UHGV virus genome: UHGV-0294315
Reading direction: 5' to 3' (one strand)
DNA: 19,472 nucleotides
DNA from: a virus
The notes beneath the pieces were generated by a model. The model was not told the DNA's origin, did no database searches, and saw only the letters and a list, made by a program, of their open reading frames with translations. Shown here in pieces: positions 2,127-17,277 of this stretch. The position numbers and the translations under genes are program-made. Every line of letters starts with the position of its first letter. Positions within the stretch are counted from its first letter, which is position 1.

Positions 2127-3503
2127 TCATACGTCAGCCCCTTGTGCATATCGTCTGCCACGCGCAGCAGGTGCATTTGATGATGTGCAAATCTGTCTGG
2201 CTTCATCCTGGTCACAGGCAACAAAGTGTCCGTTGCAGAACCGCTGGTAAACCGTACCAAGCGAGCCAAAACGGTTTTTCGTTACGATGATTTCAGCAAA
2301 TGGCGCGGCGCTACTGTTCTCGTCATATACCGCTTCCCGATAGAGCATGATGATTGAGTCTGCGTCCTGTTCAATGCTTCCTGAATCACGCAAATCTGCG
2401 TTTGTCGGGCGTTTGTTTGGTCGCTTCTCAACATCGCGCGAAAGCTGACTCAGGGAGATAACCGGTGTTTTCAGGTCTTTCGCCATCGCCTTCAGGCTTC
2501 CGGAGATGTGAGCAATTGCGAGGTCGTTGCGGTCTGCTTTCGGCTTCTCAATCAGGCCAAGATAATCCACCATGATTAGTGACAGGTTTGGATTTTCCTG
2601 TTTGTGCCGCTCTGCAATTGAGCGAATTTCTTCGACCGATAACCGCGAGGCATCGACTACCCATACATCCAAATCTGCAAGCTGACTCATGCCGTTAGCA
2701 ACACGCGCCCAGCCTTCGTCATCCATCGATGCAGGATTTCGCAGCACGCTAACCGACATCCTCCCGGCGTTGGCAATACTTCGCTCTGCAATCTGCAATG
2801 CGCTCATTTCCATTGAGAAAATCAATACCCCGCGCCGGACGTCAGAACCAGGAATAACGCGGCTTGCAACGCCTTCGGCAATCTTAAGCGCCAGTTCGGT
2901 TTTCCCCATACCAGGACGAGCAGCGATTATCACAAAGTCTTCTGCGTTCATCCCTCCGGTGATGGCATCAAGTTCTTCGATTCCGGTCTTCAGGGTATCT
3001 GACTCTTCTCCGTTCCTCAGACGCCTGTCAAGCGTGTCAGTGTAGTCAGTGATGATTTCCCCTAACCGCACCGGTTTAACCTCGTCACGGGGCTTTCTGA
3101 TGGCTGAGAGACGCTTTACAAGCTCATCCATCGCCTGACTCGATGCGTCGATGGTTCCGCTCCGAATTGGTTCACGCATTTCATCCATGATTTCCAGCAC
3201 CAGACGGCGGTGATAGTTATCCGCGACCATTCCGGCATATCCCTTCAGGTTTGCGGCACTCGGGCAGTTTTTGCTGGTCATCAGGATTGACGTGAAATGC
3301 TCCTCTCCGCACGCCTCGGCAACCATCAGCGCGTCGATTAGGTTTCTGTTTCTCGCCTGCTTGCGGATAACCTCGAAGGCTTTCCGGTAGAGCGGAATTG
3401 AAAACGCTTCCGGCTCAAGCGTTGCCAGAACGTCACTGGCAGTCGGTGTTAATCCACCAATCAGCAGGCCACCGATAACGCTCGCTTCGATATCCTGTCT
3501 CAT
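2127..3503 (-). CDS. Replicative DNA helicase, DnaB family (phage-encoded, P22 gene 12-like)
   Basis: 458 aa with DnaB N-terminal domain, Walker A ARPGMGKT, and the SLSQLSR motif. Start overlaps the O-like stop (ATGA). Confidence 0.85.
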
Positions 3504-4447
3504 GCAATCCCCCTGTCTGCAAACTTCCCTTCCCGAACTCCCGTTAACGAATCTTCCCTCAGCAGGTAATCAAAATCTGCCGTCCAGCCCGTGTCGTTGT
3601 CTCCGAAGTAAAACGGCTTGGCCTGATGCACAAACGCCCTGACATACGCTCTGAAACCGTCCACGTTTGGCGTTTTCAGTTGCGGGATGATTTTCTTCAG
3701 GCGGCGTTTGCGTTTCTCGTTGACCGCAACAGCGTGTGGCAGTCTGTCACCGACTTCGGTGTTGTAGGCGTTCAGGAAGGATTCGTAGTCGATTCGTTCT
3801 GCCTTGCGACGTTCAGGTTTAACCTGCCCATCGCCGCCCCCATTGGGGGGTAGGGGGGTATTATTTATATTCTTGTTAATACCTTCTTGTTCATGATGTG
3901 CGGTTGTTTGTGCGGCTTCATGTGCGCTTTCATGTGCGGCATGTACGCTGAAAGCCGCGCCATTACTGGCTTCATCATGTGCGGCATCATGTGCGGTTGT
4001 TTGTGCGGCTTCATGTGCGGGTGAATTGTCCATTTTTTGAGCGTATTCATGATAATTTGTGATGGTGATCACACGACCTTTTTGCTTCTCTCCATCAATG
4101 GAGATCATCCCCTCTTTCACAAAAACCTGAAGCATCCGCTCAACCTGATCACGGCTTGCTGGCTTGCCATGTCTGTCGCATAACTGAAGACCTAAATCAG
4201 CTGCTGTCACAACCAGTTGACCGGGTTGCAGATGCCATTCATGACCTTTGAAATTCGCTTTGTATGGCTTTCTGGCGGCATTCAGGAGAAGGTTTTCCCA
4301 CAGGGTGCGAAGATAAACATCTTTCGCCCATGACTGTTTCAGAATGCTCCGGTACAACGGAATGTAACCAGTTTTCTGGTTCTCCATCCTGTTGCTCCTG
4401 CGCTCGTGTGCGGCGCTGAAATCGTAGATTTTTGCTGTATTGCTCAT
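3500..4447 (-). CDS. Replication initiator, lambda O / P22 gene 18-like, with internal origin
   Basis: N-terminus [13 protein letters not shown] resembles lambda O (MTNTAKILNF...). Internal His/Ala-rich peptide repeats are encoded by the DNA iterons. Sits directly upstream of the helicase gene. Confidence 0.75.
3859..4021. repeat. Putative origin of replication: iteron array plus AT-rich segment inside the O-like gene
   Basis: About nine copies of (C/T)ATGTGCGG(C) at 9-12 bp spacing between 3893 and 4021, including a near-identical ~35-bp direct repeat (3892-3926 vs 3986-4021). Adjacent AT-rich stretch 3859-3885 and a G-run at 3845-3858. Confidence 0.6.
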
Positions 4448-4449
4448 AA

Positions 4450-4722
4450 CTACCTGCCTTGACGAAAGACCTTAAGAACATCGTTAAACTGACTTACGGA
4501 TATGTCTTCTTTGAGAAGCTTTTCCAGAAATGCGTTTGGAATGAACGTATATCCCTCCTCTTTTGGTAGAGACGGGAGCAACGCCCTCGCCTCAGCCTTC
4601 AGAAGCTCAGTTCTGGCAACTTTCACAAAAGAGATTTGAGTTCTTTCATCAATGGAACGAAGGAAGCGCAAACGCTTAGCTTCTTTGTGTGTATCAGGTG
4701 GATTAAAGCCTTTGTTTCGCAT
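4450..4722 (-). CDS. Hypothetical 90-aa protein between cII and the O-like gene
   Basis: Start chosen at the internal ATG 4722 (RBS GAGGT, 6-nt spacing); the longer track ORF would overlap cII. Charged, helical-looking sequence MRNKGFNPPDTHKEAKRLRFLRSIDERTQ.... No family recognised. Confidence 0.45.
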   Translation of the reverse strand: MRNKGFNPPDTHKEAKRLRFLRSIDERTQISFVKVARTELLKAEARALLPSLPKEEGYTFIPNAFLEKLLKEDISVSQFNDVLKVFRQGR

Positions 4723-4727
4723 ATAAT

Positions 4728-4797
4728 TACCTCGTTGGATGTTGTTAAAATTCCATTTGTATTTGATCAGAACGCTCGGTTGCCGCCGGGCGTTTTT
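4728..4797 (+). ncRNA. oop: oop-like antisense RNA with intrinsic terminator, overlapping the cII 3' end
   Basis: Plus-strand CGCTCGG-TTGCCG-CCGGGCG hairpin plus TTTTTTATT at 4769-4797 matches the lambda oop terminator as remembered. Possible -10 TATAAT at 4722-4727. The 5' end is approximate. Confidence 0.5.
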
Positions 4798-5038
4798 TAT
4801 TGGTGAGAATCGAAGCAACTTGTCGTGCCAATCGAGCCATATCGTCGTCAACGACGCCCCATTCAAGAACAGCAAGCAGCATTGAGAACTTTGGAATCCA
4901 GTCCCTCTTCCACCTGCTGATCTGCGACTTATCAACGCCCACAGCTTCCGCTGTCTTCTCAGTTCCAAGCATTGCGATTTTGTTAAGCAACGCACTCTCG
5001 ATTCTTAGAGCCTCGTTGCGTTTGTTTGCACGAACCAT
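4745..5038 (-). CDS. cII: Transcriptional activator CII
   Basis: From the internal ATG: MVRANKRNEALRIESALLNKIAMLGTEKTAEAVGVDKSQISRWKRDWIPKFSMLLAVLEWGVVDDDMARLARQVASILTNKKRPAATERSDQIQMEF, essentially lambda CII (97 aa). The track's 5' extension to 5125 is not used. Confidence 0.9.
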   Translation of the reverse strand: MVRANKRNEALRIESALLNKIAMLGTEKTAEAVGVDKSQISRWKRDWIPKFSMLLAVLEWGVVDDDMARLARQVASILTNKKRPAATERSDQIQMEF

Positions 5039-5447: not shown

Positions 5448-6164
5448 ATGGAAAATAAAAAATCACTGACGACAGAACAGCTCGAAGACGCTAAGCGGCT
5501 TAAGGCTTTGTATGAGTCAAAAAAGAAAGAATTGGGAATAACCCAATACTCAATCGCTGATGAACTGGGTATCACCCAAGGAGCGGTAGGGCATTATCTT
5601 AATGGCAGAAACGCGCTAAACGTTGAGGTCGCATCTGGTTTTGCACGTTTGTTGCAAGTCTCAATTGCTGATTTTAGCCAGTCAATTGCTGCCAAGGTTG
5701 CAGAACAGGCAGAAAGCCTTAAGAGCGATGCCAACGTAAGGTATGCAGGGGAATACAGAGCAGGAAAGAGGTATCCGGTGTTAAGCAGTATCCAGGCTGG
5801 CTCGTGGTGTGAAGCATGCGAACCATACACCATTAAAGACATAGATGTTTGGCTTGAGTCTGACGCGCATATTCAAGGCAATGCGTTCTGGCTTAAAGTG
5901 GAAGGTGATTCAATGACGGCACCGGTTGGGTTAAGCATTCCAGAGGGAACATTCGTTCTTTTCGATACCGGAAGGGAGGCGATCAACGGCAGCCTGGTCA
6001 TAGCAAAACTTTCTGACTCTAACGAAGCAACATTCAAGAAGCTGATAATCGACGGCGGAAATAAATACCTCAAGGGACTTAACCCTGCATGGCCTCTCGT
6101 GCCAATCAATGGAAACTGCAAGATTATAGGCGTTGCAATTGAGACAAAACTAAGGCTGGTTTGA
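5448..6164 (+). CDS. cI: CI-type prophage repressor (HTH N-terminal domain plus S24 LexA-like autocleavage domain)
   Basis: N-terminus LTTEQLEDAKRLKALYESKKKELGITQ resembles lambda CI; C-terminus FWLKVEGDSMTAPVGLSIPEG...ATFKKL...NGNCKIIGV resembles lambda CI / P22 C2. No Shine-Dalgarno upstream, consistent with a leaderless PRM transcript. Confidence 0.9.
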   Translation: MENKKSLTTEQLEDAKRLKALYESKKKELGITQYSIADELGITQGAVGHYLNGRNALNVEVASGFARLLQVSIADFSQSIAAKVAEQAESLKSDANVRYAGEYRAGKRYPVLSSIQAGSWCEACEPYTIKDIDVWLESDAHIQGNAFWLKVEGDSMTAPVGLSIPEGTFVLFDTGREAINGSLVIAKLSDSNEATFKKLIIDGGNKYLKGLNPAWPLVPINGNCKIIGVAIETKLRLV

Positions 6165-8071: not shown

Positions 8072-8166
8072 GCACTGTGTATTCATTCCAACGAGTGAAT
8101 ACACGGAGCAATGTCGCTCGTAACTAAACAGGAGCAGACTTGTTCTGATTATTGGAAATCTTCTTT

Positions 8167-8194
8167 GCCCTCCAGTGTGAGGGCAGTTTTTTTT
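8167..8194 (+). terminator. Intrinsic terminator upstream of the coiled-coil gene
   Basis: GCCCTC-CAGTGT-GAGGGC hairpin followed by AGTTTTTTTT. Confidence 0.55.
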
Positions 8195-8206
8195 GACGGA
8201 GGATAT

Positions 8207-9175
8207 ATGAGTGAAGTAACAGATTTAGTTGTTATTGAAAAAGCAAATGCAATGACTGTATTTCAGTCTGCCGACCAGATTGAAGAAATTCTCCAAAAGG
8301 TTGAACGTGAAGTTATGTCCTTTGTGCCTGATATCACAACGGCAAAGGGCAGAAAGGAGATCGCTTCTCTGGCGTATAAAGTTGCGCAGACGAAAACATA
8401 TCTCGATGGTCTTGGCAAAGACCTTGTTGCTGAACTGAAGGAAATTCCAAAGCTAATTGATGCCAACCGCAAGACAGTGCGTGATCGCCTTGATGAGCTG
8501 AAAGCCAAGGCACGCCAGCCTCTTACTGATTATGAGGAAGAACAGGCGCGGATTAAAGCCGAAGAAGAAGCTAAGGCAGCAGCTGAAGCTCTCGCAAAGC
8601 AAATTGAGTCTGACCATGAAATAGCGATTTTGATGGATCGCGAATTTGACCGCCAAAGAGAAGAGGCAAGACTCAAAGCGGAGCAGGAAAAGCGAGAGCA
8701 TGAAGAACGCTTAAAAAGAGAAGCTGAAGAGAAAGCCAGAGCTGAAGCCGAAGCAAAGGCAAAAGCCGAAATTGAAGCAGCAGCAAGACGAGAAGCAGAG
8801 GCTAAGGCCGCAGCGGAACGTGCAGAGCGTGAACGCATTGAAGCCGAGCAACGAGCACAGCGCGAAGCAAAAGAGGCAGCAGAACGAGCTGAAAGAGAAA
8901 AGCAGGCAGCAATTGAAGCAGAACGCAGAAAAGCACAGGAGGAGGCTGAACGAATCCGGCGCGAGGCTGAAGCAAAAGAGCAAGCCAGAATAGCAGAAGA
9001 AAAAAGAATCAAGGAAGAAGAAGAGCGTAGAGCAAAGGATAAAGCTCACCGGAAAGAAGTAAATAACAAAATACTTGCTGACCTTATCAAGGTTGGCGCA
9101 TCAGAAGATGTTGCTAAAAATATCATAACAGCCATCGTAAAAGGCGAAGTATTCGCAACAAAAATAACCTACTAA
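8207..9175 (+). CDS. Coiled-coil protein with a TolA-like Glu/Ala/Lys/Arg-rich central repeat region (322 aa)
   Basis: Start at the internal ATG 8207 (RBS GGAGGA); the track's 5' extension would include the terminator. Middle section is a long EAKAKAE / ERAERE-type low-complexity helix flanked by unique N- and C-terminal segments. Confidence 0.6.
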   Translation: MSEVTDLVVIEKANAMTVFQSADQIEEILQKVEREVMSFVPDITTAKGRKEIASLAYKVAQTKTYLDGLGKDLVAELKEIPKLIDANRKTVRDRLDELKAKARQPLTDYEEEQARIKAEEEAKAAAEALAKQIESDHEIAILMDREFDRQREEARLKAEQEKREHEERLKREAEEKARAEAEAKAKAEIEAAARREAEAKAAAERAERERIEAEQRAQREAKEAAERAEREKQAAIEAERRKAQEEAERIRREAEAKEQARIAEEKRIKEEEERRAKDKAHRKEVNNKILADLIKVGASEDVAKNIITAIVKGEVFATKITY

Positions 9176-9722: not shown

Positions 9723-10430
9723 ATGGATTTGAATAAATTCGATGAGCCATTCAGCCCTGAAGATATCGAATGGCGAATACAGCAAAGCGGTAAAACACGC
9801 GATGGCAAAGTGTGGGCTATGGTGCTGGCTTATGTCACGAACCGGGCAATCATGAAACGCCTGGACGATGTTTGCGGCAAAGCAGGATGGCGCAATGAAT
9901 ACCGCGATATTCCCAACAACGGCGGCGTTGAATGCGGCATATCAATCAAGATTGATTCCGAATGGGTAACCAAATGGGATGCTGCTGAAAACACGCAGGT
10001 AGAAGCCGTCAAAGGCGGTCGTTCCGGTGCAATGAAGCGCGCTGCCGTTCAGTGGGGAATCGGTCGGTATCTGTATAACCTTGAGGAAGGTTTTGCACAA
10101 ACATCTCTCGATAAAAAGCAGGGATGGCACAGGGCAAAACTCAAGGATGGAACAGGATTTTACTGGCTCCCTCCATCGCTGCCGGGATGGGCAATCCCAG
10201 CATCAGATAACAAACCATCACCAGAAAATACCAACCAGAAATCTCCATCGGTTGACTGCGAACAAATCCTGAAAGACTTCAGCGATTATGCGTCAACAGA
10301 AACTGACAAGAAAAAACTCATCGAGCGTTATCAGCGTGACTGGCAATTAATGGCTGGCAACGAGGAGGCGCAGGCTAAATGCGTTCAGGTAATGAACATC
10401 AGAGTTAACGAACTAAAACAGGCGGCATAA
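9723..10430 (+). CDS. Single-strand annealing protein, Rad52/Rad22-like family
   Basis: 235-aa ORF in the bet/erf position, directly upstream of ssb. AYVTNRAIMKRLDDVCGKAGWRNEY and GAMKRAAVQWGIGRYLY resemble the Rad52-type annealing fold. Family assignment is from memory. Confidence 0.6.
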   Translation: MDLNKFDEPFSPEDIEWRIQQSGKTRDGKVWAMVLAYVTNRAIMKRLDDVCGKAGWRNEYRDIPNNGGVECGISIKIDSEWVTKWDAAENTQVEAVKGGRSGAMKRAAVQWGIGRYLYNLEEGFAQTSLDKKQGWHRAKLKDGTGFYWLPPSLPGWAIPASDNKPSPENTNQKSPSVDCEQILKDFSDYASTETDKKKLIERYQRDWQLMAGNEEAQAKCVQVMNIRVNELKQAA

Positions 10431-10946
10431 ATGGCAAGCAGAGGCGTAAATAAGGTGATCATTATTGGTCGCCTTGGGCATGATCCAGAAATCAGATATT
10501 CACCATCAGGAACGGCATTTGCAAACCTTACCGTTGCTACGTCAGAACAATGGCGTGATAAGAAAACTGGAGAGCAAAAGGAGCAGACGGAGTGGCACCG
10601 CGTGGTAATGAGCGGGAAACTGGCAGAAATTGCCAGCGAATATCTGCGAAAAGGCTCTGAGGTTTATCTTGAAGGCAAATTGCGGACAAGAAAATGGCAG
10701 GATCAAAGCGGACAGGATCGGTTCACTACCGAAGTCATCGTGGGCGTTGGTGGAACCATGCAAATGCTTGGTGGCAAGCAAGGAGGCAATGAACAGTCTT
10801 CACCTCAGCGAAATAACGGTCAGCAACAAAGACAGCAATCTCAGCAGCAGGGGAATCACAGCGAACCACCTATGGATTTTGACGACGATATACCCTTTGC
10901 ACCAGTAACTCTCCCCTTCCCTCGTCACGCTATTCACGCAATTTAA
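10431..10946 (+). CDS. ssb: Single-stranded DNA-binding protein SSB with a 15-residue C-terminal extension
   Basis: [23 protein letters not shown]...[50 protein letters not shown]...MDFDDDIPF is near-identical to E. coli SSB, but the ORF continues [15 protein letters not shown] before the stop. Confidence 0.9.
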
Positions 10947-10959
10947 TCAGGAGAAAATC

Positions 10960-11256
10960 ATGCCAGCGCCTCTGTATGGTGCGGACGACGCGCGCCGCTG
11001 TTCCGGCAATTCCGTATCGGAGGTGCTGGATAAATTCAGACAAAACTACGACCTGATAATGTCGCTACCGCAGGAAACGAAAGAGGAAAAGGAATTTCGC
11101 CACTGTATATGGCTTGCAGAGAAAGAAGAACGAGAGCGAATTTACCAGACATCAATCCGACCATTCCGAAAAGCCACATATACCCACTTCCCTGAATATA
11201 TCGACCCGCGCCTGCGTAATTACCGCTCACGCTATGGCGCTATCAGTAATGACTGA
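10960..11256 (+). CDS. Hypothetical protein (98 aa)
   Basis: RBS AGGAGA upstream of ATG; intact ORF in the early-left operon. Confidence 0.5.
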   Translation: MPAPLYGADDARRCSGNSVSEVLDKFRQNYDLIMSLPQETKEEKEFRHCIWLAEKEERERIYQTSIRPFRKATYTHFPEYIDPRLRNYRSRYGAISND

Positions 11257-11557: not shown

Positions 11558-11718
11558 GAGGACTTGCATACAATCCCGGCATTCTTCCGGCAGAAATGAT
11601 TATTCGCCAACGCGTAAAGCCAATGCCATCGAGAGAGGAATTGCTTAAGAGAAATAGTTTCGGTTCTGTTAATGACAACAAATATCTGAATGCGATGTGG
11701 CGGAGTGGGAAGAAATGA
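11554..11718 (+). CDS. Hypothetical small protein (54 aa)
   Basis: Translationally coupled (ATGA overlaps at both ends); [54 protein letters not shown]. Confidence 0.35.
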
Positions 11719-12110
11719 AACAAATGTCACTAATTGAGATGGATGGATTTCTGAAAGGTAAATGCATCCCACGAGATTTAAAGGTTAACGAAACAAACGC
11801 TGAATATCTGGTGCGTAAATTTGCTGAAGCGGAGGCCAAGTGCGCGGCGCTGGCAGCGGAGAATGCAAAGCTGAAGAAGTTCTGCAAAGACGCTGCATTC
11901 GATGCCGATTACGAAGCAGAGCTAGGTATGGAGAGAGGTGGATTCAGTGATGCGCTTAACGAAATCAAAACCCCAGCCACCGATGCTTTCCTAGCTGAAG
12001 TACGGGCGCAGGGGGTAGAGATGTTTGCTGACAATCTGTTGTGTCCAGACCTTGATGGCACTATCCGTGACTTTGCTGCCCAGCTTCGCAAAGGAGGAGG
12101 GCAAAAATGA
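11715..12110 (+). CDS. Hypothetical protein (131 aa)
   Basis: Start at ATG 11715 overlapping the upstream stop; contains a predicted coiled-coil segment [20 protein letters not shown]. Confidence 0.5.
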
Positions 12111-14818: not shown

Positions 14819-15090
14819 AATAGCGGGTAAAATATTTTTCACATCTAAAAAACACCATTCCAATCAATCCCCTGCCGCGCCAAGTAGATGTCTGCAGGGG
14901 ACACTTTAAAGACCTTTCTCTACATTTCACTTCATTACATAACCACTTAAAAAAACAGTAAGTTATCACCGAATCGGCCTGATTTTCATTTCAGTTAATT
15001 TCATGACATTACAACCTCGTGATGGTATAAGTGATGGTATTCCCCAGTTCGATATGCAGATACCATCAATCTACCAAAATGAGTACAGAT

Positions 15091-16365
15091 ATGGCCATTA
15101 ATGTGCTTTCCCCCAAACAGATAGAAAACGCCAAGCCGAAGACCAATGATTACAAACTTACCGATGGAGGGAGTTTGTATCTACTGGTACGAAAGACTGG
15201 TGGAAAATACTGGCGTATGAATTATCGTTTTGATGGAAAACAAGTGACATTGGCATTAGGGGTCTACCCAGATGTCTCACTTGCAACAGCGCGGAAACGG
15301 CGTGATGAAGCCAGGCAACTACTAGCCGATGGTCGTGATCCTCGCGAAGCAAAGAAACCCAAAAAGGAAGACCCAATTTCCCCCACGTTCGAGAGTGTTG
15401 CCAGAGAGTGGCATAGTAGAACGATAGGGCATCCTGAGTGGAAAGAGATCACCCGTAAAAAAATTCTCCGAGAAATGGAAAACCACCTCTTTCCTGCCAT
15501 CGGTTCAAAGCCTATCGATACGCTCAAAACCCGTGACTTGATGCCGATGCTGGTTGAGATGACTGAGAAAGGAATTGGTGCCACAACGAGCCGGGTAAAA
15601 ACCACTATGACGAGCATCTTCCGTTATGCCGTGCAACGTGGAATTGTCGATTACAACCCTGCCCACGATCTAAAAGGTGCAATTACGACCCCCAAAGTAC
15701 GACATCGCCCCGCACTACCTCTCGAACGTTTACCTGAACTGTTAGCGAAAACGAGAAGTTACACGGGAAGACCATTGACTCGCCTAGCAGTTCTATTTTC
15801 CCTGCACACTTTTGTGCGATCCAGCGAACTACGACATGCCAGATGGGAGGAGATCGACATTGAAAATGGGCTATGGACGATACCAGGACAACGTGAAGAG
15901 ATCGCAGGGGTTAAATTCTCAGAGCGGGGTGCAAAGATGGGGGCTGCTCATTATGTCCCGCTATCTAGTCAGGCTATCGGGGTACTGGAGGATATAAGGA
16001 AAATCAGTGGTGAATATCTGCTGGTTTTCCCCGGTGACAGCAACCCATATAAACCGATGAGCGAAAACACAGTTAATAAAGCACTGCGAACGATGGGTTA
16101 CGACACTCAAAGTGATGTTTGCTTGCATGGGTTCAGGGCGATGGCCTGCTCTGCACTGACCGAATCAGGACTCTGGTCACGCGATGCAGTTGAACGGCAG
16201 ATGAGTCACCAAGAAAGAAACGAAGTGCGGGCAGCATATGTGCATCTTGCGCAGCACATGCAGGAACGCCGCAGAATGATGCAATGGTGGTCTAATTATC
16301 TGGAACTAAATAAGGACGAATTTCATGCTCCTTATGACTTATCAGGTATTAACATTATCAATTAA
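15091..16365 (+). CDS. int: Tyrosine integrase, P4-type (DUF4102 arm-binding N-terminus plus phage integrase catalytic domain)
   Basis: MAINVLSPKQIENAKPKTNDYKLTDGGSLYLLVRKTGGKYWRMNYRFDGKQVTLALGVYPDVSLATARKRRDEARQLLADGRDP is a typical P4-family integrase N-terminus. Start could also be ATG 15079 or the track's GTG 15031. Confidence 0.85.
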   Translation: MAINVLSPKQIENAKPKTNDYKLTDGGSLYLLVRKTGGKYWRMNYRFDGKQVTLALGVYPDVSLATARKRRDEARQLLADGRDPREAKKPKKEDPISPTFESVAREWHSRTIGHPEWKEITRKKILREMENHLFPAIGSKPIDTLKTRDLMPMLVEMTEKGIGATTSRVKTTMTSIFRYAVQRGIVDYNPAHDLKGAITTPKVRHRPALPLERLPELLAKTRSYTGRPLTRLAVLFSLHTFVRSSELRHARWEEIDIENGLWTIPGQREEIAGVKFSERGAKMGAAHYVPLSSQAIGVLEDIRKISGEYLLVFPGDSNPYKPMSENTVNKALRTMGYDTQSDVCLHGFRAMACSALTESGLWSRDAVERQMSHQERNEVRAAYVHLAQHMQERRRMMQWWSNYLELNKDEFHAPYDLSGINIIN

Positions 16366-16395: not shown

Positions 16396-17277
16396 ATGCA
16401 GCATTCAAAAGAGAATGAAACTATATTCTTAGGAAATCTATGGATTGACAAAAAAATACCACCATTAGAATATTGTTCATTTGAACGCGCTTCAAGACTA
16501 TTAGAATGCGAGATTGATGATTTATTACACCTATACGAAATAGGCGCTTTTAATATCGCATTCAAGGCGGATGGACTTGCAGTTAGATTTAATGTTAATT
16601 TCCTCTATAAAAATCAGAAAATGGAAATTGACTTAATTCATCCCGTATTAACTAATCAATCACTAGAGATGGAATTTTCAACAATATGGTATGACCTTAA
16701 AGATGACTCCTTTGAACATTTTGAAAATGGGCTTCAAATTATAGGATTTGCCTGTGGTATTTGGTACGCCGATGATATGATAAGTGACATAAAAAATGGA
16801 TTAGCTATAGATCCAGATTATGAATTCAGGCTTAAACCGGTAAAAATACGAGATAATGTTTTGATGGCAACGGCCTCATATGAAGGAAATAAGGTCATTG
16901 ATATTCCATTTGAAGATCTTCTTATCATGCGAAGAGATTTAGAGTTAATATGGAAATCAGTAAAAACTGGAATTCCTATGCCAAGTTTACTTACGAAAAG
17001 AATTTCATCTGAACCTAAAATCCCCAAGCGATTAAATAACACTGCTGAGCATCATGCAAAAAATAGGGGGGGGTTATTAAATGCAGCCATATATATATTA
17101 GCAAAATACCCAAGCGAATGTCGTGGTGAAAGAAAAGAGATAAGTCCTGAAAAGTGGACTAACGCCATAATTAAACATTTAGGAGAGCTACCTCCAATAT
17201 TTATCACTAATGAACAAGAAATCTTAAGAAAATTACGATTAGCGGTTAATCATGCGGGATTAAAACAAAAGGGGTAG
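16396..17277 (+). CDS. Hypothetical 293-aa protein, AT-rich standalone gene between int and alpA
   Basis: Own consensus -10 TATAAT (16373-16378) and RBS AGAGG; long intact ORF in strongly AT-rich DNA. No domain recognised. Confidence 0.6.
   Translation: MQHSKENETIFLGNLWIDKKIPPLEYCSFERASRLLECEIDDLLHLYEIGAFNIAFKADGLAVRFNVNFLYKNQKMEIDLIHPVLTNQSLEMEFSTIWYDLKDDSFEHFENGLQIIGFACGIWYADDMISDIKNGLAIDPDYEFRLKPVKIRDNVLMATASYEGNKVIDIPFEDLLIMRRDLELIWKSVKTGIPMPSLLTKRISSEPKIPKRLNNTAEHHAKNRGGLLNAAIYILAKYPSECRGERKEISPEKWTNAIIKHLGELPPIFITNEQEILRKLRLAVNHAGLKQKG

Follow-up and report, generated by a model that had tools for sequence, protein, structure and literature searches.

The window analysed here, a stretch of 19,472 nucleotides from the virus genome UHGV-0294315, represents the early region of a prophage of the lambdoid/P22-like type. 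Replication genes of the DnaB-type P and the O kinds lie on its minus strand (2127-3503 and 3500-4447, respectively), a cI repressor gene is at 5448-6164 and an integrase gene at 15031-16365, and the phage that best matches it is HZ41. The leftward operon carries erf, ssb, abc2, an Ead/Ea22 gene and a DUF551 gene, with ssb in the early-left recombination module. That module is of the P22 type, erf being upstream and abc2 downstream, and its gene order is that of Sf6 and HK75. The erf-type gene, on the plus strand at 9723..10430, specifies a single-strand annealing protein of the Rad52/22 family (PF04098, E = 5e-26) and has the place in the order held by Sf6 gene 28 and HK75_32. Its stop codon is directly abutted by the ATG of ssb (TAAATG), which occupies 10431..10946 on the same strand. 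Right after the ssb stop the sequence has an AGGAG ribosome-binding site (10949..10953, plus strand) for abc2, the last gene of the module, which encodes P22-type anti-RecBCD protein 2 (10960..11256, plus strand; PF11043, E = 1.5e-61).

The 171 codons of ssb, which are followed by TAA at 10944-10946, specify a bacterial-type SSB with a C-terminal extension, and the same allele is annotated ssb in E. coli genomes and in phages. Both the alignment to the PF00436 profile (residues 6-105, E = 3.7e-38, Pfam) and identity with E. coli SSB place the OB-fold ssDNA-binding domain at 10446..10745, and the TIGR00621 score of 183.5 bits is far above the cutoff of 53.95. With the model of the enterobacterial housekeeping SSB (NF006533 / PRK09010) the score is 246.7 bits, below the curated cutoff of 260, and the window SSB, rather than being the housekeeping protein, is a phage paralogue. 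After a Gln/Gly/Asn-rich linker (residues 116-145) comes an acidic tip of 11 residues (146-156, nucleotides 10866..10898), identical to the last 11 of E. coli SSB. There, the DDDIPF motif is at the very end of the protein; here it is residues 151-156, and 15 more codons (residues 157-171, nucleotides 10899..10943) intervene before the stop, so that the alpha-carboxylate of the Phe is not free. The alignments to all those NCBIfam SSB models that reach the C-terminus end at residue 156, and the tail is thus outside every curated SSB model. An AlphaFold2 monomer model, derived from an alignment of 116 sequences, is of low confidence (mean pLDDT 53.9), with pLDDT below 50 from residue 114 onward and about 27-34 in the tail.

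The first-pass annotation of this DNA had reported that the open reading frame runs 15 residues past DDDIPF, and the sequence and the translation of 10431-10946 agree with it on this. Its description of the protein as near-identical to E. coli SSB up to that point was too strong. Identity in the OB region is 79% over residues 1-119, the linker is a different one, and an exact match is confined to the 12 residues that immediately precede the tail.

How widely is such a tail distributed? Its 45 nucleotides are present, base for base, on the ssb genes of the independently sequenced phages HK75, mEpX2, epsilon34 and CP-1639, and the identical peptide is on the SSBs of mEp235, g341c and ECP1. SSB bodies of the HK75/epsilon34 type have only about 74% DNA identity to that of the window, and the gene downstream of the tail in these phages is either abc2 or one for a 3'-5' exonuclease. 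A 75-nucleotide query across the junction, with at least 80% of it covered, matched 297 of 5426 complete E. coli genomes, where the annotation is simply ssb. Among the IMG/VR matches listed for the exact tail core (at least 120), 88 have it as part of an SSB and 26 as part of an HNH protein; the other 6 are mostly truncated or frameshifted. When protein clusters (90% identity; E. coli, Klebsiella, Citrobacter, Salmonella) were ranked by closeness to the window SSB, the tail proved to be present in 115 of the best 120. More distant IMG/VR SSBs, 66-77% identical, also have tails at that very junction after IPF, diverged in sequence and again exactly 15 residues long; APIGLPYPRHAIYVI is one such form, three further forms occur, and the genes downstream differ. 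An allele in which IPF and a stop are joined straight to the exonuclease leader exists at two loci (L181, L187), and the counterpart joined straight to the abc2 leader, the ‘empty-site’ allele, had no match in IMG/VR. As far as the literature could be searched, the feature is apparently undescribed, though the sequences themselves are common in databases: no description of the tail peptide was found in open-access full text, where the matches to ‘IPFAP’ are unrelated, and the paper on the epsilon34 genome does not comment on the SSB extension. In a PDB search with tip plus tail it is only the DDDIPF part that matches. The entry 7F2N has six residues after IPF, which we take to be a purification tag.

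A second type of allele is instructive. In the window the junction (TTT/GCA, 10896..10901) is endonuclease-free, TTT being followed directly by GCA CCA with no HNH open reading frame between the IPF codon and the tail. At exactly this point Sf6, IME10, N7, CurroJimenez and Huey have an inserted HNH gene of about 0.45 kb. Megablast matches to Sf6-like genomes accordingly break into two pieces spanning 963 bp, the ssb match being interrupted by about 0.45 kb in Sf6, IME10, N7 and CurroJimenez_Bas106, and in Sf6 the match downstream of the break restarts at window position 10901. The gene 27 SSB of Sf6, about 98% identical to the window protein in its body, ends with ...NFDDSDIPF, and the gene 26 product is an HNH endonuclease of 159 amino acids whose last 14 residues are those of the window tail, in the same frame and with the same DNA. 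A note in GenBank on Sf6 gene 26 already points out that 14 contiguous residues coincide with those of an E. coli SSB. In Huey a different HNH protein (48% identical) is at the same site and has the same ending. In both Sf6 and Huey the last ~10 codons of ssb are recoded, the Sf6 version being ATGAACTTCGACGATTCGGATATTCCGTTCTAG where the window has ATGGATTTTGACGACGATATACCCTTTGCA. Among the nearest 80 SSB loci in IMG/VR, 21 have an HNH gene and in 49 the tail is fused to SSB, so the presence/absence polymorphism is at one precise site among near-identical genomes. Alleles with a stop immediately after IPF were what the first-pass annotation considered would count against an extended SSB, and they do exist, in Sf6, IME10, N7, Huey and several Salmonella phages. 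The finding is nevertheless not overturned by them, as the stop in the Sf6/Huey group comes with an HNH gene inserted precisely there, whose 3′ end is formed by the tail codons.

To which of the two proteins does the tail belong? That it is native to the HNH family was ruled out. HNH relatives in other contexts end with ...PIY or with the short unrelated PEDLKAA or PDEPKSA, a Pectobacterium phage homologue stops at ...DPVY, and the PHROG endonuclease profile covers residues 1-143 only of the 159. Given these relatives without a tail and the extent of the profile, it is the inserted gene that reads out into the SSB tail. Because of the recoded SSB end and the presence/absence polymorphism among near-identical phages, the HNH gene is probably a free-standing homing endonuclease. 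Its insertion gives SSB a free -DIPF end, with the last 14 tail codons being taken over by the endonuclease frame. Variants of the tail on HNH proteins mirror those on SSBs, which suggests that exchange between HNH-bearing and tail-fused alleles is ongoing. There are also SSB-HNH fusions (P0011, P0014), HNH-exonuclease fusions (P0024, P0053, P0060, P0063) and, in Klebsiella phage phiKp_30, a gutted and decayed HNH gene.

For selection on the tail, 26 distinct 45-nucleotide tail sequences were collected with the filter L[PQS][FYH][PS] at positions 5-8, which slightly favours conservation at those positions only. Mean pN/pS across them is 0.29. The pairwise differences number 1057, 725 and 2358 at codon positions 1, 2 and 3, respectively, and all 15 of the third positions are variable. 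Eight different DNA sequences encode the very peptide of the window, one of them differing from the commonest by 7 synonymous and 0 nonsynonymous changes, and for some pairs there are 7-9 synonymous versus 0-1 nonsynonymous differences. In the alignment of 116 sequences L161, F163, R165 and H166 are invariant, and P158, V159, T160, P162, P164 and I168 are kept in at least 90%. The consensus of the tail peptide is [AS]P[VI][TG]LP[FY]PRHxI[HY]xI-COOH. Underneath, DDDIPF is perfectly conserved. The third-position bias and the pN/pS value indicate selection at the protein level. Purifying selection acts on the tail as read in the SSB frame, and this is as much a matter of observation as are its sequence, its distribution and the insertion polymorphism.

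Tails of other sequence are also found after an internal tip. When one genome of each species was scanned for DDDIPF with [AS]P next to it, at least 120 loci resulted, some of them chance matches in unrelated open reading frames, and among the matches listed are SSBs of Pseudomonas with the tails APLHHLAGA and APISRLLLNII, of Rhizobiales with APEWR and APEVR, of Psychrobacter with APHFDGQF and of Alteromonas-like bacteria with APIGLQYPALLSVM, besides others. All eight representatives of these internal-tip SSBs that were taken are PF00436-positive. Upstream of such genes are those for Sak4-like AAA_24, YqaJ, RecT, ERF, RdgC, Gp157, a gp5.9-like RecBCD inhibitor and reverse transcriptases, and the neighbourhoods are prophage recombination and replication modules. 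A scan of viral contigs with no preference for AP (FDDDIPF and then any codon that lacks an initial T) yielded 102 post-IPF tails, 60 of which start with AP, and further tail families, namely xDPYRGxxxLLI, MRHGHRGADVCWRAM and a single extra Asn. By lineage, the 15-residue form is that of enterics, APLHHLAGA that of Pseudomonas and APEWR that of Rhizobiales, with xDPYRGxxxLLI elsewhere.

What would a tail beyond so well known a tip do? On balance we consider it probable that a clade of temperate-phage SSBs carries a real C-terminal cap, translated and maintained in evolution, which insulates the tip from host partners. The pockets of chi, DnaG, ExoI, RecQ, RecO, PriA and others require a free carboxylate. 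The terminal Phe and its carboxylate have to enter a closed pocket that is both basic and hydrophobic, so an extension of 15 residues would be expected to prevent canonical docking. In the case of E. coli SSB, the addition of one C-terminal Gly sufficed for there to be no measurable binding of chi, with function impaired in vivo (PMC3045619), and for there to be no binding of DnaG primase (PMC3632105). By analogy, the phage tail most likely blocks the docking of canonical partners. The cap renders DDDIPF internal and removes the free carboxylate of its Phe, and the phage SSB could then coat ssDNA without recruiting, or titrating, the partners of host SSB. At the same time the tail would offer a hydrophobic peptide rich in Pro, aromatic residues and His as a different handle, either for another partner or for self-regulation. 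A selective reason can only be speculated on. Host-like tips on phage SSBs have been linked to ExoI and to the activation of a defence system (bioRxiv 10.64898/2026.04.29.721553), and one possible reason for a cap would be to hide the tip from defence. The perfect conservation of DDDIPF beneath it suggests that the motif still does something, whether by an internal mode of binding, by autoregulation on the OB fold, or by exposure following proteolytic removal of the cap. For phage growth the cap is dispensable, given that the SSB of near-identical phages (Sf6, IME10, N7) has a free -DIPF end.

More tentatively, the reading can be widened, and here we would speak of a possibility rather than of a probability. 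Temperate phages of Proteobacteria may encode a class of ‘capped-tip’ SSBs, in which a perfect DDDIPF lies beneath lineage-specific tails that decouple phage ssDNA from the host SSB interactome or hide the tip from host functions and defence systems responsive to SSB-like tips, and that are perhaps removable, with the tip then exposed on cue. A partner that co-varies with the tail was sought among the genes neighbouring ssb and none emerged there, the upstream genes being heterogeneous. Genomic context gives no hint of a phage partner either, since annealases of three unrelated families are encoded beside this one family of tails. The upstream genes met with in that neighbour analysis were Rad52-like Erf, Sak4-like AAA_24, ERF, RecT, YqaJ, RdgC and reverse transcriptases.

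A removable cap or a degron is a live alternative, because DDDIPF is so perfectly conserved beneath the cap and because ‘AP’ so commonly follows the Phe. In this alternative, to which we give a rather low probability, the hydrophobic C-terminus is a degradation signal or a removable pro-peptide that limits, or times, the activity of a host-like tip, so that stray expression does no harm in lysogens. The C-termini of the tails may resemble C-terminal signals of the ClpX type, and in all lineages most tails end with small or hydrophobic residues (…HAI, …YVI, …LAGA, …LLI). An intact DDDIPF beneath the cap is what later exposure would lead one to expect, and the AP directly after the Phe in 60 of 102 tails could be a processing site. 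The Rhizobial tails (APEWR), however, are not hydrophobic.

Might the tail instead be a docking motif for the phage's own annealase, with Erf being recruited by it to SSB-coated ssDNA? There is a precedent in HK620, where the six C-terminal residues of SSB serve to recruit Sak4 and annealase stimulation is tail-dependent (PMC5928155). In addition, ssb abuts erf in the window, and the tail is conserved and hydrophobic. However, the same tail family is found beside a Rad52-like Erf in the window, beside Sak4-like AAA_24 at two other loci (L173, L193) and beside ERF of PF04404 at a further one (L203), and in Sf6-type phages the same Erf (98-100% identical) works alongside an SSB with a free tip. 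With three annealase families sharing the tail, and one Erf accompanied by SSBs of both kinds, an annealase-specific handle is unlikely. P22 itself, with erf and abc2 and without any ssb, also counts against it.

A quite improbable origin is that the tail is a neutral scar, i.e., the 3′ end of an HNH gene which became fused to SSB when the endonuclease was deleted in frame. Such an origin has some attractions. The Sf6 gp26 protein and the 48%-identical endonuclease of Huey share their 14-residue ending with the tail, some HNH variants read ...PDEAPVTLPF and so match all 15 of its residues (P0021), and deletion fusions do occur at the locus (P0011, P0014; P0024, P0053, P0060, P0063), as does the decayed HNH of phiKp_30. 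However, HNH relatives away from the ssb locus are without the tail, diverged tails occupy the identical junction where there is no HNH gene nearby and the neighbours are others, tails of the AP type occur across Proteobacteria, and, in the SSB frame, the tail evolves under purifying selection. A scar may be the origin in one lineage; neutrality of the tail is excluded.

Alternatively, the 45 nucleotides could be kept for what they are as DNA or RNA (a terminator, a leader of abc2 or an endonuclease recognition site), with translation being incidental. That these nucleotides are 100% identical between phages with about 74% identity in their SSB bodies, and that the junction is a probable target of the endonuclease, are in keeping with this. 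Nevertheless it is a very remote prospect. The RNA fold of 10870-10975 is weaker than that of shuffled controls (z = +1.9), which led to a terminator or other RNA element being rejected, and a leader of abc2 was rejected also, as phages that have abc2 and are without ssb lack the tail, their match beginning only at about window position 10945 or 10957. Moreover, whatever gene comes next, the conserved stretch runs to the stop codon and no further, and variation is concentrated at the third positions of the SSB frame. The weakest proposal of all is an accident, in which a sequencing error or a recent mutation destroyed a stop after IPF with consequent translation into former intergenic DNA, and while canonical SSBs and some close relatives (sal5, ES18, Sf6) do end at IPF, it is hardly credible when the same 45 nucleotides are in hundreds of independent genomes, diverged tails preserve length and frame, pN/pS is 0.29 with a third-position bias, and it would take two or three changes to turn the GCA after TTT into any stop codon. 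The first-pass annotation had left the choice between a point mutation that removed the stop and an extension, perhaps deliberate, that alters or blocks the recruitment of host partners; the distribution of the tail and its pattern of substitution dispose of the former, and the latter is the reading that we infer to be best supported.

If the tail is indeed a cap that insulates the tip, why does it matter? More than a dozen proteins of replication, repair and recombination are held to dock on SSB through its free C-terminal Phe, which is viewed as universal in this role, and the free tip also serves as a drug target and as a rule in the design of portable recombineering systems. A widespread and selected natural variant in which the motif is kept and its end blocked would mean that phages tune the engagement of host partners by SSB. 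It would bear on how phage recombination intermediates escape host nucleases, on why phage SSBs trigger Retron-Eco8, DRT10 and DARNA, and on the choice of SSB for recombineering. About 5% of the complete genomes of E. coli have the tailed allele, under the plain annotation ‘ssb’, and the HNH insertion provides a natural pair, capped and uncapped, of SSBs that are otherwise ~98% identical.

How does the window protein compare with known systems? E. coli SSB (PDB 1EQQ / 4MZ9) is of the same family, with 79% identity in the OB region over residues 1-119, a disordered Gln/Gly/Pro-rich linker and an identical 12-residue segment; however, the host protein ends at the Phe with its carboxylate free, whereas the window protein has a shorter and unrelated linker and 15 further conserved residues. 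The engineered SSB with an added Gly resembles it in that the Phe of DDDIPF is no longer C-terminal, but that construct is artificial, has just one extra residue and complements poorly, and the phage tail is natural with 15 conserved residues. Tip-less SSB paralogues, e.g., the competence SsbB of Gram-positive bacteria, are presumed to be outside the host SSB interactome; they delete the tip, whereas the window SSB keeps a perfect one and caps it. HK620 SSB, also from a temperate coliphage and encoded in a recombination module beside abc2, is a distant homologue with a free NDYPPF end and no extension beyond the tip, and its C-terminal residues have a phage-specific role with the Sak4 annealase as partner (PMC5928155). 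A further parallel is genes 27 and 26 of Sf6, with an SSB body about 98% identical, the same erf-ssb-abc2 module and 14 of the tail residues in place and in frame, but there the SSB end is recoded and free, and the tail is instead the C-terminus of an HNH endonuclease.

What occupies the junction between ssb and its tail in relatives of the prophage? One exact site, with the ssb IPF codon on one side and the tail on the other, holds both gene 26 of phage Sf6 (L001:1984-2463) and its counterpart in phage Huey (L005:1978-2445), HNH endonuclease genes whose mutual identity is only 48%, and the window has the matching empty site at 10898/10899. Fourteen of the tail codons are the read-out end of both HNH ORFs, and on the alleles that carry them the 3′ end of SSB is recoded, to NFDDSDIPF or NFDDEIPF followed by a stop. 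Judged from sequence, the Sf6 and Huey genes look like the free-standing type of homing endonuclease, splitting a gene end.

In two IMG/VR loci, L181 and L187, SSB stops at IPF (at about 1960-1975) and the leader of the exonuclease, TAAGGACTGATATGAACCA, follows directly; the same leader lies 3′ of the tail in phages of the epsilon34 type. Relative to these two alleles the tail is a clean in-frame insertion or deletion of 45 nt. The free-tip alleles of the Sf6, Huey and sal5 group end in PPMNFDD(S)DIPF or PPMNFDDEIPF, whereas most capped alleles, those with the tail fused after IPF, retain the 11-residue acidic tip identical to that of the host. Recombinant alleles also occur, with the tail on NFDDEIPF in CP-1639 and on NFDDSDIPF in protein P0189.

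Products of in-frame deletion at the ssb/HNH locus include proteins P0011, P0014, P0024, P0053, P0060 and P0063, one type having the HNH C-terminus joined to the SSB N-terminus and the other the downstream 3′-5′ exonuclease joined to the HNH N-terminus. In phage phiKp_30 (L006:1950-2150) the HNH gene is gutted and the 14-residue tail is present in variant form. The fusions and this remnant look like stages in the decay of the endonuclease gene.

As to the neighbourhood, abc2, encoding anti-RecBCD protein 2, is labelled ‘putative ABC transporter ATP-binding protein’ in the GenBank records of CP-1639 (L007:1964-2257) and g341c, apparently an annotation error arising from the gene name. Four sizeable ORFs of the window gave no Pfam match: 11697-12110 (+), 4450-4995 (−), one of 354 aa upstream of erf (8111-9175, +) in the position of Sf6 gene 33, which is similar to Orf53 of phage D3, and one of 293 aa just past the integrase gene (16396-17277, +). 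As phage similarity stops at ~14.9 kb, the last is probably at the prophage end or past it.

SSBs with internal DDDIPF and lineage-specific tails are widespread in Proteobacteria, among the matches listed in a scan of genome contigs (L210-L329) and in a viral scan (L330 onward). In other Proteobacteria, two of the AP-tailed SSB genes immediately follow a gene for reverse transcriptase (RVT_1), and another has a bAvd-like accessory gene upstream (all among L229, L253 and L256); these neighbours may have a role in defence or represent diversity-generating-type retroelements. The tails include APLHHLAGA and APISRLLLNII in Pseudomonas, APEWR in Rhizobiales and APHFDGQF in Psychrobacter; further families, which lack the AP start, are xDPYRGxxxLLI, MRHGHRGADVCWRAM and one added Asn residue.
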